Program-made: the position numbers and the translations under genes
Part shown: piece after piece, positions 57,658 to 64,000 of the stretch
Layout: each line of letters starts with the position of its first letter
Numbering within the stretch: position 1 is the stretch's first letter
The notes under the pieces: model-generated
What the model was told of the DNA's origin: nothing
What the model saw: only the letters and a program-made list of their open reading frames with translations
Database searches by the model: none
Source of the DNA: an uncultured Desulfobacterales bacterium
Lineage (GTDB): Bacteria > Desulfobacterota > Desulfobacteria > Desulfobacterales > CAJINA01
DNA: 64,000 nt
NCBI GenBank assembly: GCA_964636125.1
Contig: CAZWPX010000011.1
Span: 18,741 to 82,740 of the forward strand
Reading direction: 5' to 3'

Positions 57658-60600
57658 ATGGCAACTGGTGACTGCAAGAAGTTATACAGGCACGCACTGA
57701 ATTACCTGGCAGCAACTATTTTCAAAATCAATAGGCCGGTTTTGGCACTTGTTCTTGTACTGGTCATTTTTGTTCTATCTATACGGCCTGCTGGGGCCAC
57801 ATCGGCCAGCATCTCAGTCAGTCGTGATGACTGGCGGGCCAATATTACAGTGTCCGGTTCATTCACTGCCTATGAAAATTGCAACCAGGCAGATCCGCCG
57901 GTCTGTACGACAAATGACAGCGGCTCCTTTTACGTCTATCATACACCCCCCGGTGGAACTGAGGCAGAAATCGGCCGTGGTAACGGTAACGGATCTTTTC
58001 AGTGGTCAGGCTATAAGGACGCCGGGATATTGGCCCAGGGCTCCCACCAGTTTCGTGTCCATGCCCTCGATTCAAAATCCACCACCGGGTCCGGAGCCGA
58101 TATGTTTGAGGTCGATAACACCCCTGTGGTGAATATCAACCCGATCGAGGAACCCGAAGGTTGGTTCTATGTGACCGGAACCATTGATTTTAAGCGTAAC
58201 GGCAGCGGCACTGGTTTCGGCCGCTACAGTGTCACCGTGGACGGGATAGACATCGTAAGCTCACGGGGAGGCATCGATTTTGTATCTGTGACCGAAACGC
58301 CATACCAATTCAGTCATCGGACGGATTCGATCAACTGGACTCAGGGTGAACACGCCATAAGGGTTGAGGCGATTGCTGCCAACGGTGTCAGCATTGTGAC
58401 CACTGGCAGTTTTTCGATCGACAATACTCCGACGGTCCACATTGATCCGCCAGGGACCATCAGAGGCTATTTTAATGCCGAGGGCACGATTGATTTCAAA
58501 GCCATCGGTGATGATAACTATTACAACGAAGGCTACTATTCCGTGGTTGTTGACGGAAACCTGGATGTACTTAGCCCTTGGGGCGGTATCGATTCGCAAA
58601 CTGTAGATGAAACCCACCATGAATTTTCTCACAGGGTAAATTTCGCCGGCGGTTTGATCAGCGGCGAGCACACCCTCACTGTAAACGCAGCTACTCCCAA
58701 CGGCGCAAGTAAGAGCGAAACCAAAACTTTCACTGCAAACAACAATCCTATCATCGAAATCTATGATCCCGGGCAGCCCACTGGGCCATTTTATATAAGA
58801 GGGCACATCAATTTTGCTGCCGGAGACGCCAACGACTATGGCAGGTATGCCCTTTTATTTGACGGCCAGGATATGATTAGCCCATGGGGAGGGGTTGATT
58901 ACAGATCTGTAGGACGCCAAACCGACTACTATTTCGAGCATAGAGTCAATTATACACCGAGCAGCGGTGACCACACGATACACGTGTATGCCTATGGGTT
59001 AAACGGTGAAAGGGTCGGAAAAGCAATAACGTTTAATAGCAACACAGAACTGATAGCACCAAAAAATTTGGGGGAATGCGGTGGCAATTGTGAAACCAGA
59101 CCCTCTATTGGAAATAATGATACAAAACTTGCTCAAACGAACGATATTTATCCATCAACACTATTTCCCATCAATTTCGCCACCGGCAACAAATACAAAA
59201 GCCAAGTTGACTTTCAACTATCCGGACCAGGTCTTCCTTTCGGTTTTACTCGTTATTATAACAGCCAAAGCGAAGCCAATATAGGATGTAATCCTCCGGA
59301 ACCATATGGAGGTGATTGGGCCATGACAGTCACCCAGGAGCCCAGCATAACCTCGGGTGAAGCCTGGTATGAAGCCAACAACCCAAACTGCCCGGACCCT
59401 GGATATCGAGGAACCGGAACAGATAGTACCAATGGATATATGTATTGGTATAATTATGACAAATGCGCTGGGGGGGGCGCACCCTACATTTCGATGTTCC
59501 ACTATTACTGTCTTAACAGTGATCATTGGGATTATGGCTATGGCTGGACTGTCAGTTACTCAGAAAAAATAGCAATATCCGACGGCACTATCATCTTACG
59601 TGAGGCAGATGGTGCCCAAATCCATTTCAGGGACAACGGACAAGGAACTTTTGTTTCTGAGGCTGACCATGTAAGAAAAATTGTTGCAGCAGCAGAAGGA
59701 CACACACTCACGGAACCGGACGGACGAACCCTTTCTTTTAATGCCTCTGGCCATCTCATCCAAATTGCGGATCGTAATGGAAATACCCAGACGATAACCC
59801 ATGTGGATGGCAGACCATATTCTGTGGAAGACAATTTTGGCCGGCGCATAGAGTTTCATTACAGCGCACAAGGCCAACTCGACACATTGGTGACACCGGT
59901 TGGTAACTTTACCTACCAGCACGATGCAAATAACAACCTTTATCGTGTGAATAACCCAGAAGGTACCTTTAGGACTTATATCTATGACGATGCCAACGAC
60001 ATCCATAACCTTACCGGAATCACGAATGAAAAAAATGTCCGTACTCTCACAGCCGTCTATGACGCAAATGATAGGGCTATAGCCTCAGAGCGAGCCAACG
60101 GTGCTGATCGTGTTGAGGTAACCTACGACTCCAATTTATACCGACACGTAACAGACTCTCTCGGGAATACAACAACTTTCAAGCTGCATGTTAACAACGG
60201 CATCGGCCGGGTCAAATCTTCATCTGGTGCCGGTTGCGGTAGTTGCTTGGCGTCTATAGGTGAAAGTTATCTGCTAAACAACCGTCTTCAAATGAGCCAG
60301 GAAACGGATGGCGAAGGCGCTGTCACAAGTTACACTTATGACGACCGTGGTAACGTCCTGACCAAAACCGAGGCCGTGGGGACGGCTGACGAGCGTACCA
60401 CCATTTACACCTATCATCCCGATTACGCCCTGGTAGCCACAATTACCCGCCAGAGCGTGGCCAACTCCGGAAGCACCACCGTCACTACTTTCAGCTACGA
60501 TGCAAACGCAAATCGCGTTGGTGTAACGGTAACCGGGTATACCAACGGTACCCAGACATCGATTACAACCACGCTGGACTACAACAGCTACGGCCAGCTC

Positions 60601-63600: not shown

Positions 63601-64000
63601 GATTACCTGGGCAGCCAGTATTTTAGCGGCAACACCCTCCTGGTAGCGGATCAGTCCAACCCGGTCGAGATCTCCACCGGCGGCGGCAACTTCACGTTGA
63701 CAGTTGAAAAAGAACCTGGCCTGGCAATGGCCGGCGTAAAGAATTACCTGTTTACCGATGCCGGGTCTTACCTGGGGCACACGACCGCTACCAATGCACA
63801 AGGTGAATCCGTGTACGAGCTGGCCGACGGCAGCTATAATATCCGCAGTGATTACATGGGCTACCAGTTCTGGACACCTGTCTTTACCGTACCGGACAGC
63901 GGAGCTCATACGCAGACTATCGCGCACAGTGATGTAACCATCACAGTGGATAAGCAAAACGGGGCTGTTAACGAGGCCATCGAGAACATAAAGGTCTATC
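57658..64000 (+). CDS. Giant surface/secreted RHS (YD-repeat) family protein, N-terminal 2114 codons; continues beyond the window
   Basis: Manual translation from ATG 57658 (GGAGGAG Shine-Dalgarno sequence) shows no stop up to position 64000. A signal-anchor sequence (PVLALVLVLVIFVLSIRPAGA) is present. The RHS entry motif is FPINFATGNKYKSQVDFQLSGPGLPFGFTRYYNSQ. There are dozens of YD units (YTYDDRGNV, YRYDDSGNN, YQYDDFGRV, YGYDVDGNL and others). Confidence 0.85.
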   Translation, partial: MATGDCKKLYRHALNYLAATIFKINRPVLALVLVLVIFVLSIRPAGATSASISVSRDDWRANITVSGSFTAYENCNQADPPVCTTNDSGSFYVYHTPPGGTEAEIGRGNGNGSFQWSGYKDAGILAQGSHQFRVHALDSKSTTGSGADMFEVDNTPVVNINPIEEPEGWFYVTGTIDFKRNGSGTGFGRYSVTVDGIDIVSSRGGIDFVSVTETPYQFSHRTDSINWTQGEHAIRVEAIAANGVSIVTTGSFSIDNTPTVHIDPPGTIRGYFNAEGTIDFKAIGDDNYYNEGYYSVVVDGNLDVLSPWGGIDSQTVDETHHEFSHRVNFAGGLISGEHTLTVNAATPNGASKSETKTFTANNNPIIEIYDPGQPTGPFYIRGHINFAAGDANDYGRYALLFDGQDMISPWGGVDYRSVGRQTDYYFEHRVNYTPSSGDHTIHVYAYGLNGERVGKAITFNSNTELIAPKNLGECGGNCETRPSIGNNDTKLAQTNDIYPSTLFPINFATGNKYKSQVDFQLSGPGLPFGFTRYYNSQSEANIGCNPPEPYGGDWAMTVTQEPSITSGEAWYEANNPNCPDPGYRGTGTDSTNGYMYWYNYDKCAGGGAPYISMFHYYCLNSDHWDYGYGWTVSYSEKIAISDGTIILREADGAQIHFRDNGQGTFVSEADHVRKIVAAAEGHTLTEPDGRTLSFNASGHLIQIADRNGNTQTITHVDGRPYSVEDNFGRRIEFHYSAQGQLDTLVTPVGNFTYQHDANNNLYRVNNPEGTFRTYIYDDANDIHNLTGITNEKNVRTLTAVYDANDRAIASERANGADRVEVTYDSNLYRHVTDSLGNTTTFKLHVNNGIGRVKSSSGAGCGSCLASIGESYLLNNRLQMSQETDGEGAVTSYTYDDRGNVLTKTEAVGTADERTTIYTYHPDYALVATITRQSVANSGSTTVTTFSYDANANRVGVTVTGYTNGTQTSITTTLDYNSYGQLTYLDGPKTTVADIVRYEYYPNDPAQGLNRGQLEKIIDPLNRETVFAGYNGYGKPQSATDINNVVTILDYDTAGRMTHSTRNSLTTVYGYDEIGQLETLDLPNGQQIVYRYDDSGNNTRITDKLGNYIVYGYNSEGKRNREEIHDTTGELKKYTDFEYDPVNRLWKTVYPDGTYAELLYDNNNNIDLLTDANGKVTDHDYDDLNRLEYVTQPGNTLTTYGYDTHDNLTSVKDAENLTTTYQYDDFGRVETEISPDTGTTAYLYDLAGNLESKTDANNTVTTYVYDILNRLTDVIFSDTSQNIAYSYDEGPDGLGRLTGMTDPSGAYVYGYDVDGNLDSEQKTVDGITYTTGYDYDAAGLLTDITYPDGRLVTYARDAAGNVTGVTTTKDGTTSVVAENIAYLPFGPLTDMTMGSGTAVSRQFNERYLLENLSAGSLMDYTYDFDNVGNITDITDGLDAARSQSFGYDDLYRLNSATGIYGSIGYTYDKVGNRQTRTLDGQTDAYTYEPGTHKLTGITGPNAQIFGYDAAGNTTSKGQQTLAYNLNNRLIRITDQGTTVGEYVYNGKGQRIKKTTGGDTTIYHYDLAGNLIGESDTAGVFAAQFIYLGVERLAAVAPTRISEITVQVATDAGRNLPGIRVYAFTDGGAYTGKYATTGDDGVAAFGLDDFADGSYKFRADYLGDQFWTPVIAVPGLIATAVPIPEDAVTVQVTQGCLGKAGVRVYLFNEAGSYLGQYQTTDANGEVTFVLPEGQGYKFRADVTGGQFYSETVTIVDGANSFTLDTGGGILTLTLSKGQDLPMAGIRTYLFTASGSYLGQSGTTDALGKAGFAVPSGSYKIRADYLGYQFWTNVTGVTTDAGIDLEILHQDVVITVAGQDDADVQPREGVKAYLFTPSGSYLRINATSDDQGRVTFNLPSKEYKVRVDYMSQQFWSGVFVQQDTAVTIPECRVQIFTTRLGNPLADVDTFVFGSTGSYLYLNGTTDAQGNIVYRLPAGTYNFRGDYLGSQYFSGNTLLVADQSNPVEISTGGGNFTLTVEKEPGLAMAGVKNYLFTDAGSYLGHTTATNAQGESVYELADGSYNIRSDYMGYQFWTPVFTVPDSGAHTQTIAHSDVTITVDKQNGAVNEAIENIKVY
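57805..59040 (+). repeat. Four divergent tandem domain repeats of about 100-105 aa at the N-terminus of the RHS protein (Ig/beta-sandwich-like)
   Basis: Repeat boundaries are marked by DNTPVVNI (58114), DNTPTVHI (58420) and NNNPIIEI (58738). Each unit contains G.IDF...G.Y.V.VDG.D..S..GGID and H.I.V.A. Confidence 0.6.
62452..64000 (+). repeat. At least 6.3 tandem domain repeats of about 83 aa (about 250 nt) after the YD region (carboxypeptidase-regulatory-like / prealbumin-fold signature)
   Basis: A recurring block is G(V/I)(R/K).YLF...GSYLG...TTDA.G...F.LP.GSYK.RADYLG.QFW. Copies begin near 62503, 62750, 63001, 63253, 63490, 63733 and 63986. Confidence 0.7.

Follow-up and report, generated by a model that had tools for sequence, protein, structure and literature searches.

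A predicted RHS polymorphic toxin of a Desulfobacterales bacterium carries an array of eleven prealbumin-like repeats between its YD shell and RHS core

The DNA stretch analysed here (the window) comprises 64,000 nucleotides from an uncultured Desulfobacterales bacterium (GenBank assembly GCA_964636125.1, contig CAZWPX010000011.1, positions 18,741 to 82,740, forward strand), and it ends inside a giant plus-strand gene encoding an RHS/YD-repeat protein, where the YD shell is followed by an array of tandem repeats of another kind. We aimed to distinguish between two alternatives. The array could take the place of the RHS-associated core and the encapsulated toxin, as proposed in an earlier, sequence-only reading of this locus; the protein would then be non-encapsulating, with any cargo encoded by a separate downstream gene. 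Alternatively, the array could be an insertion, with the core and the toxin following it past the window edge. Within the window the former seems natural, as only repeats follow the YD shell.

The open reading frame (ORF) 57658-64000 has no stop in its 2114 codons, and in a search of 5.8 billion proteins the window translation was matched by P0001 (2813 aa; a single NCBI contig of 88,357 bp) with 100% identity over 100% of its length. Thus, the gene runs for 699 codons past the window edge, uninterrupted. In P0001 the array consists of 11 units (residues 1605-2495, 891 aa) and ends beyond the window. It is followed by a linker of 50 aa (2496-2545) with the conserved pattern LDLLALDxTNxPxPxRFDGxPPE...LASLxxxxGLLxQxVV, and then by matches to PF03527 (2546-2579; 38.3 bits, cut-off 27.9) and TIGR03696 (2574-2649; 90.7 bits, cut-off 32.5; positions 2-76 of 76 of the hidden Markov model, HMM). 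The core, separated from the shell by approximately 946 aa (the array plus the linker), has the motif DPVG-X19-DPWG preceded by PxxxxDPxG, with R2608 located 13 residues before the first aspartate (D2621) and the second aspartate at D2644. Such a bipartite aspartyl-protease motif with a conserved arginine has been described for BC toxins and BiTLP (PMC13018210). As judged from its sequence, the Rhs-associated core following the array is complete, its motif matches the described aspartyl autoprotease, and cleavage is predicted.

A tail of 165 aa (about 18 kDa) follows DPWGL, its size fitting the usual cargo. Among 1.84 billion representatives, an exhaustive HMMER search with this tail found 17 relatives; about a dozen are C-terminal domains of approximately 120 aa. 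In most of these C-terminal relatives a DPxG-type RHS-core motif comes first, immediately or with a variable spacer in between; in two it is missing. The family shares the motifs FEGSQxGxGxG, HDIxG, EEK, GGTxP and NxELHIxL. The structural model of the tail, of moderate confidence (pLDDT, the predicted local distance difference test, 74), has one helix and seven long antiparallel strands; a sequence search of PDB matched nothing, and Foldseek against PDB yielded no match below E = 1e-3 (the best being 7e-3). We consider the tail to be the predicted toxin of a rare, uncharacterised all-beta family; action as a membrane-active beta-structure would be a guess. Small ORFs follow the homologues in L002, L005 and L080, at the place where a cognate immunity gene would be expected.

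As the complete core and the toxin follow the array, the latter is an insertion into the last shell hairpin and not a replacement of the core. The same order holds for all family members with both junctions, so that the alternative with a non-encapsulating protein is refuted and we leave it practically no probability. What the sequence-only reading had claimed about the single ORF, about the toxin lying beyond the window and about a non-canonical domain order still stands, since the array separates the YD shell from the RHS core, in departure from the textbook order. By its defining features at the sequence level (YD shell, core and variable C-terminal tip), the protein classifies as an RHS polymorphic toxin.

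The position of the insertion can be defined rather precisely. It lies between the last shell strands FIYLGVERLAAV (residues 1583-1594) and the first core strand LHWYVNDHLGTP. With residues 1595-2540 removed in silico, the deletion construct aligns to solved Rhs chains unbroken across the junction (8h8a RhsP, YIPLAVLENGSIYLYECDQVGKP; 7q97 RhsA; 8cp6 Tse5; E = 1e-38 to 1e-29), and in these three chains the two junction strands are joined by roughly 4-10 residues. In close homologues lacking the array, the same site comprises 2-8 residues (P0189, P0002), or else contains an insert of approximately 71 aa in the same loop (P0003, residues ~1219-1289) with two DxDxDG-type motifs and sub-threshold EF-hand/dockerin Pfam matches (E ~2e-4); this comparison covers the eye-checked P0002, P0003 and P0189 plus the insert class, the automatic survey having been confused by earlier YD repeats. 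Thus, given the insert of P0003, the loop between the shell and the core tolerates insertions, and it looks like a hot spot for insertion of accessory modules. The dockerin of P0041, considered as a second insertion into this loop, was rejected, as it sits in a C-terminal Thr/Pro-rich region.

If the array were enclosed in the cage, it would have to fit the cavity. The mass of the array is 95.8 kDa and its volume is roughly 116,000 cubic angstroms (computed from 891 aa), which far exceeds the published cavities, that is, about 25,000 cubic angstroms in Rhs proteins of type VI secretion systems (T6SS), about 37,000 in the BC component (bioRxiv 10.1101/2024.02.26.582050) and about 44,000 in BiTLP (PMC13018210). 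Hence, we infer an outside position for the array. At its N-terminal end the junction is tight, the first strand of unit 1 beginning after 5-10 residues. Since both ends of the insert join neighbouring strands, the array must return to its origin, and would do so via the conserved 50-aa linker.

The lengths of units 1-11 are 83, 83, 84, 77, 83, 84, 77, 82, 84, 77 and 77 aa, and the units show a three-unit super-repeat. The sequence-only reading had counted at least 6.3 tandem repeats of approximately 83 aa, in agreement with the six full units and the start of the seventh seen in the window, and had assigned them a prealbumin-like fold, distinct from YD. The match of CarbopepD_reg_2 (PF13715) to the units is marginal (32.7 bits, cut-off 32.2); homologues carry precomputed assignments to PF13715, PF13620, PF17802 and PF10670. 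In the AlphaFold2 model of residues 1540-2660 (an alignment of 52 sequences; 62275-64000 is the part in the window), pLDDT is approximately 90 across the array (1600-2495), which is all-beta with about 7-8 strands per unit, and below 50 in the linker and the isolated core; the overall predicted template modelling score (pTM) is 0.38. Foldseek top matches in PDB (E from 2e-14 to 1e-7) are tandem domains of TIE of B. anthracis (6fwv), Cna B repeats (1d2p), BcpA (3kpt), pilin, 3phs, SdrD B domains and MG domains of alpha-2-macroglobulin, with E = 2e-14 to 7e-8 for 6fwv, 1d2p, 3kpt and 3phs. On the strength of the model, the repeats are assigned to an independent prealbumin/CnaB-like beta-sandwich fold, and not to degenerate YD units. 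Strands of 16 residues (model residues 382-397, 626-641, 869-884) and of 12 residues (307-318, 551-562, 794-805) recur with a period of approximately 244 residues and cross the unit boundaries. In the model, these boundary-crossing strands suggest a rigid, regular packing of domains and not beads on a string.

We then consider how common this layout is. In a scan of one genome per species the repeat was found at 79 loci, where the layouts were mapped by HMM and phmmer searches of stop-to-stop ORFs. The order YD shell, 11 units, core was observed in a single ORF at L001, L002, L004, L005, L007, L008, L009, L011, L012 and L064; at L006 and L014 the array between the shell and the core, likewise in a single ORF, has 10 and 7 units, respectively. 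The same order was also observed in proteins P0074, P0075, P0077, P0078, P0080 and P0086, with the size of the insert being 939-951 aa. By sequence, the layout of YD shell, 11 units and core recurs in at least 12 other Desulfobacterales/Thermodesulfobacteriota genomes. The architecture is thus not unique to this gene.

The best relative in the genome scan is L001, from the Olavius algarvensis Delta 4 symbiont (78% identity), and relatives in genomes of gutless-worm symbionts comprise L001, P0118 and P0161. The N-termini differ among family members, being either short or containing beta-helix, discoidin or Big_7 domains, and the toxins differ as well. The toxin tip of L001 (6193-6612) matches Pfam DUF5675 (E = 1e-8); the tips of the other examined family members yielded no match.

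The closest full orthologue, L080 (JGI sample 3300010292), is 71-76% identical to P0001 over residues 609-2648, whereas residues 1-608 and the toxin have no counterpart in it. Thus, the N-terminal part of approximately 600 aa and the tip are the parts that can be exchanged. The L080 region 5298-12412 is called as three genes, one cause being a frameshift inside the array near P0001 residue ~1975, which reflects either decay or an error of sequencing. Upstream of this orthologue there is an unannotated gene of 1037 aa.

Downstream of the RHS genes in L002, L004 and L005 we observe orphan fragments, each comprising 2-7 units, the core and a new tip, and each followed by a small ORF. This is the classic pattern of Rhs orphan cassettes, but here the cassettes begin inside the array. 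P0085 (712 aa; an NCBI contig of 83,537 bp) shares 82% identity with P0001 over the stretch from unit 6 to the core and has a different tip, in which an M23/LytM-like HxGxD motif is seen by eye; the protein may come from the same or a sister genome. Fragments with the array and the RHS core were also found on short contigs labelled 'Candidatus Hecatellales archaeon' (L018, QMXD01000119.1) and 'Bacillota bacterium' (L003), as well as in proteins labelled Dehalococcoidia/Dehalococcoidales (P0084, P0098); for these four, mis-binning seems more likely than a true distribution.

The array is not restricted to RHS proteins. Of the 120 best array proteins, 27 belong to the insert class of RHS proteins, whole or as fragments, 4 have the array N-terminal of the YD shell, and in 82 it forms the extreme C-terminus, with 11, 13 or 10 units and neither YD repeats nor the core, the heads of these proteins including PhoD_N and chitobiase-C domains. 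We observed that unit i of P0001 is most similar to unit i of other 11-unit arrays for 5-11 of the 11 units (at least 7 in 12 of the 13 arrays), and this also holds for the non-RHS arrays; where the numbers disagree, the two units nearly always belong to one class of the three-unit super-repeat. Unit orthology was derived from global alignment scores, the local-alignment identity being too noisy. The array is 46-78% identical between species. Thus, as the units match by number, the array is an old module with position-specific units, moving as one piece, and not an expanding tandem repeat. Since it normally ends the proteins, the insertion site in the RHS protein is plausibly the last point of the chain still outside the shell.

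Some further occurrences of the array were recorded. A sizeable group of apparently orthologous Desulfobacterota exoproteins of approximately 1900-2300 aa has the array in 11, 13 or 14 units, ending within a few residues of the stop codon (for example, L027, L030, L031, L036, L037, L041, L050, and P0113, P0124, P0132, P0136), with PhoD_N, chitobiase-C or He_PIG heads and the copy number quantised by the three-unit super-repeat. In L042 (Candidatus Thiomargarita nelsonii, 7841-22675), the gene of a 1612-aa protein with an 11-unit array is directly followed by an ORF of 3326 aa with YD repeats, possibly a split or alternative arrangement of the same components.

We regard it as probable that the gene encodes a Sec-exported RHS toxin in which the 11-domain module interrupts the last shell hairpin and is followed by the core and the toxin. 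In such an exported toxin of the Desulfobacterales type, the DUF6531 plug with a lineage-specific Cys-rich insert precedes the YD shell of approximately 1000 aa, the Rhs-associated core with its aspartyl autoprotease (R2608, D2621, D2644) would spiral inward and plug the shell, and the 165-aa toxin would be cut off after DPWGL (L2648) and held inside the shell, with autoproteolysis and encapsulation presumably proceeding as in the solved Rhs proteins. The array, at the last point of the chain outside the shell, may be an external stalk, or a module for cell-surface retention or adhesion, and the partial arrays of the downstream orphan cassettes may provide homology tracts for swapping of toxin tips. 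Several points weigh against this reading. The putative signal peptide was identified by eye only, and a protein of approximately 300 kDa would have to pass through a diderm's outer membrane. The pTM is low for the modelled region, and the outside position, the shape of the array and the meeting of its ends rest on arguments of volume and topology, not on a model; the toxin model is moderate and lacks a structural match. What the array does is deduced from its fold and from its other occurrences.

Other interpretations of the array have to be weighed against this one. It could mainly be a receptor-binding arm contacting prey or host cells, and not a stalk or anchor on the producer side. Tandem domains of the CnaB/TIE type belong to adhesins, binding domains embedded in RHS repeats or located near the toxin were proposed to enhance contact with the target cell (Zhang et al. 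2012, PMC3482391), and relatives occur in the gutless-worm symbionts. The module is, however, conserved position for position across unrelated heads, and its identity of 46-78% between species is easier to reconcile with a generic role in structure or anchoring than with variable receptor binding. Besides, CnaB domains of adhesins usually are stalks and not the binding part. Hence we consider a receptor arm unlikely, while still giving it more credit than any of the following variants. One of these is mechanical: being located at the hinge between the wall and the plug, the array could be more than a stalk and work as a rigid external lever or receptor arm, with its three-domain super-repeat and its domain-bridging strands of 12-16 residues, so that binding or load would act on the plug, open the cage and release the toxin. 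We hold this idea as a rather improbable one; if true, it would mean contact-gated release for an RHS toxin independent of secretion systems.

The array could also have no structural role in the cage and be retained chiefly as a homology tract for swapping of cassettes and tips, in line with the orphan fragments that start inside the array (2-8 units, the core and new toxins) and with P0085, which diverges from P0001 at the tip. On the other hand, the number of 11 copies, the insert length of 939-951 aa and the unit-wise orthology are conserved, also in cassette-free non-RHS proteins, and canonical Rhs genes recombine without such an array, so that we find this variant very unlikely. Finally, the ORF itself might be an artefact, that is, a chimera in a metagenome-assembled genome or a decaying pseudogene fusing an RHS gene with an array gene; the contig is of the metagenome type, the P0001 cluster has a single member, and the L080 orthologue is frameshifted inside the array. 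This is hardly credible, as at least 12 independent assemblies, made in different studies, have both junctions conserved within one ORF, and the ORF is intact both in the window and over all 2813 codons of P0001. Thus, the exported toxin with the module spliced into the last shell hairpin remains the reading that we prefer.

The part of the gene located in the window is summarized in Table 1.

Table 1. Features of the RHS gene and its upstream region, with coordinates in the window
Feature	Position	Strand	Basis or remark
Partial coding sequence, residues 1-2114 of the 2813-aa predicted RHS polymorphic toxin	57658..64000	+	no stop; identity to P0001
Shine-Dalgarno-like GGAGGAG	57649..57655	+	read from sequence; 2-nt spacer to ATG
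Sigma54-type -24/-12 consensus match TGGCACattctTTGC	57568..57582	+	76 nt 5' of ATG; putative
Putative hydrophobic signal peptide or signal-anchor, aa 27-46, then RPAGA/TS	57736..57795	+	read by eye from translation
Four N-terminal repeats of ~105 aa, aa 47-470	57796..59067	+	pairwise identity; three clear, one divergent
DUF6531 (PF20148; RHS entry/plug), split by Cys-rich insert	59167..59559	+	61.5 bits, two stretches
Cys-rich insert inside DUF6531, about aa 538-626	59269..59535	+	Cys 544, 578, 603, 618
YD/RHS shell, aa 627-1594 (~1000 aa), end motifs TIYHYDLAGNLIGESD ... FIYLGVERLAAV	59536..62439	+	RHS_repeat x13, TIGR01643, NF041261
Low-GC3 segment: last N-terminal repeat, DUF6531 with insert, first ~250 aa of shell	58858..60350	+	in-frame sliding GC3 (GC content at third codon positions)
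Prealbumin/CnaB-like units 1-6 and first 16 residues of unit 7, aa 1605-2114	62470..64000	+	unit alignment, AlphaFold, Foldseek, CarbopepD_reg_2

In the window translation the identity of the shell is clear, with RHS_repeat (PF05593) matching in 13 stretches (Pfam, E = 1e-52), TIGR01643 (YD_repeat_2x) matching with E = 1e-28 and the RHS_core model NF041261 matching as well (both NCBIfam), which bears out the description of the protein as a giant RHS/YD-repeat one. Of the 74 HMM positions of DUF6531, the first stretch of the match (aa 504-561) takes in 3-53; the end coordinate was set by eye at GYGWTVSY (aa 627-634), where the domain was read as resuming. The Cys-rich segment had been placed right after the RHS entry motif; it lies within DUF6531, between FTRYYNSQ (530-537) and GYGWTVSY. 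It matched no Pfam family and is absent from the orthologue L080, whose similarity begins at aa 609.

As for the four N-terminal repeats of approximately 100 aa described in the sequence-only reading as beta-sandwich-like, units 2-4 (aa 153-255, 256-362, 363-470) are clear, with pairwise identity of 36-44%, while unit 1 (aa 47-152) is divergent, with approximately 21% identity to the others; Ig-like Pfam hints are all sub-threshold, and the repeats have only 2 relatives in the 5.8-billion-protein search. Their sequences indicate that they probably are Ig-like/E-set beta-sandwiches.

The two lowest-GC 1-kb windows of the entire 64 kb begin at 58,501 and 59,001, in partial agreement with the earlier impression of AT-richness in the first 2.5 kb or so of the gene. 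The dip of in-frame GC3 covers codons ~400-900 (nucleotides ~58,860-60,350), where the value is 0.31-0.49, compared to 0.55-0.75 elsewhere in the gene and 0.61-0.64 in the neighbouring genes. A mosaic N-terminus, also suggested from the letters, agrees both with this dip and with the lack of similarity to L080 over residues 1-608. The promoter assignment fared less well: the consensus match is there, and the pattern TGGCAC-N5-TTGC occurs 2 times in the 64-kb window with 0.22 expected, but the motif was not found upstream of 8 homologous genes, and, at the level of sequence, the match upstream of the RHS gene should be considered a consensus match only. The second exact match (48790-48804, plus strand) is situated approximately 70 nt 5' of a peroxiredoxin/Redoxin ORF (48873-49472). 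The rest of the window is housekeeping (ilvB/ilvD-type genes, two leuA-like genes, topA, secD, RNase G, leuS, murJ, peroxiredoxin, a fumarase-class lyase, recQ, hisHF-like genes, an aldo-keto reductase), and neither T6SS nor any other dedicated secretion genes or cluster were seen in the 64 kb.

RHS cages are usually described as closed and smooth, with all accessory domains being N-terminal, while here the last hairpin of the wall, at the wall/plug hinge, takes an insertion of approximately 100 kDa, whose copy number and unit order are kept across many Desulfobacterota. This hairpin would hence be a natural and engineerable site for display of cargo on the cage. Exoproteins of sulfate reducers repeatedly use the prealbumin-like module of 11 or 13 units as a building block, and the protein adds a rare, uncharacterised family of predicted toxins. 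It also offers a system for asking how toxins exit Rhs cages with neither T6SS nor TcA, and the relatives in gutless-worm symbionts and in hydrocarbon and subsurface communities provide an ecological angle on contact-dependent competition among anaerobes.

Comparison with the known systems sets the protein apart from each of them. It has no Pfam matches to PAAR, VgrG, SpvB or NHL. With the T6SS Rhs cages (P. protegens RhsA, 7Q97; V. parahaemolyticus RhsP, 8H8A; P. aeruginosa Tse5, 8CP6; the solved set also includes the Rhs cores of S. bongori and A. mimigardefordensis, 8QJ*) it shares the YD shell of approximately 1000 aa, the core with the DPxG...DPxG aspartyl protease motif and the small polymorphic C-terminal toxin; in contrast to them, it has a putative Sec-type signal and probable Ig-like repeats in place of PAAR, VgrG or prePAAR. 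The solved T6SS cages are smooth, having no protrusions or decorations (bioRxiv 10.1101/2024.02.26.582050), whereas here a module of approximately 96 kDa emerges from the last hairpin. Assignment to T6SS Rhs effectors was rejected given the absence of PAAR, prePAAR and VgrG Pfam matches, the signal-like N-terminus and the housekeeping neighbours within the window.

Bacterial teneurin-like proteins (BiTLP; PDB 9IFO/9PT5; Raoelijaona et al. 2026) are YD-shell toxins that depend on Sec, are probably displayed at the surface and carry adhesion domains of the beta-sandwich type at the N-terminus (PMC13018210). They resemble P0001, for which similar traits are predicted, also in the autoprotease motif; their C-terminal domain of approximately 15-18 kDa is kept in the shell, as predicted for the toxin of P0001, and they also occur in Thermodesulfobacteriota (PMC13018210); on the other hand, the superfold of the FN-plug and NHL propeller was not detected in P0001 by Pfam, DUF6531 being in its place. 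The accessory beta-sandwich domains of TLP, the TTR domain included, are all N-terminal of the shell, with none between the shell and the core, and accessory beta-sandwich domains N-terminal of YD shells are already known (PMC6425310; PMC13018210). A bacterial teneurin-like protein was rejected, as there is no NHL or TLP-type Pfam match and DUF6531 precedes the shell, with the FN-plug being judged by Pfam and not by structure.

The Tc BC cocoon (TcdB2-TccC3, 4O9X; YenB-YenC2, 4IGL) has a core that aligns to that of P0001 (E = 1e-16 to 1e-10) and the logic of encapsulation and autocleavage that is predicted for P0001. Unlike P0001, Tc is a two-protein cocoon with SpvB and beta-propeller parts that docks on TcA, and its shell decoration, the propeller, is on the opposite, N-terminal side; assignment to Tc toxin B/C was rejected, as neither SpvB nor the TcB beta-propeller had a Pfam match. 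WapA is a protein of monoderm bacteria with cell-wall-binding N-terminal repeats, and we know of no internal array in it. The Gram-positive WapA-type RHS toxins (B. subtilis; S. suis, PMC12704120) are similar to P0001 in their export by a signal peptide (putative in P0001), their RHS repeats and their polymorphic C-terminal toxin, and feature an immunity gene.

Zhang, Aravind et al. (2012; PMC3482391) noted RHS repeats with a single embedded domain of the RicinB, discoidin, bulb-lectin or papain-like type; carboxypeptidase-regulatory or transthyretin-type arrays have 0 mentions there, and no insertion point at the shell/core hinge is defined. In the literature searched, whose coverage is incomplete, we found no description of a multi-domain prealbumin-like array at this hinge; such an insertion is thus undescribed in the literature found and yet recurrent in databases, which hold dozens of such proteins under generic names. 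The closest analogues of the array itself are the CnaB/prealbumin stalks (Cna B, 1D2P; B. anthracis TIE, 6FWV; BcpA, 3KPT; SdrD B; the CarboxypepD_reg clan), with the same unit fold of approximately 80 aa and the same tandem order. The sequence identity to these Gram-positive stalks is only 9-17%, and, unlike them, the array has a fixed number of 11 units organized in a three-unit super-repeat and is found in exoproteins of Desulfobacterota and, as in the protein described here, inside an RHS protein.

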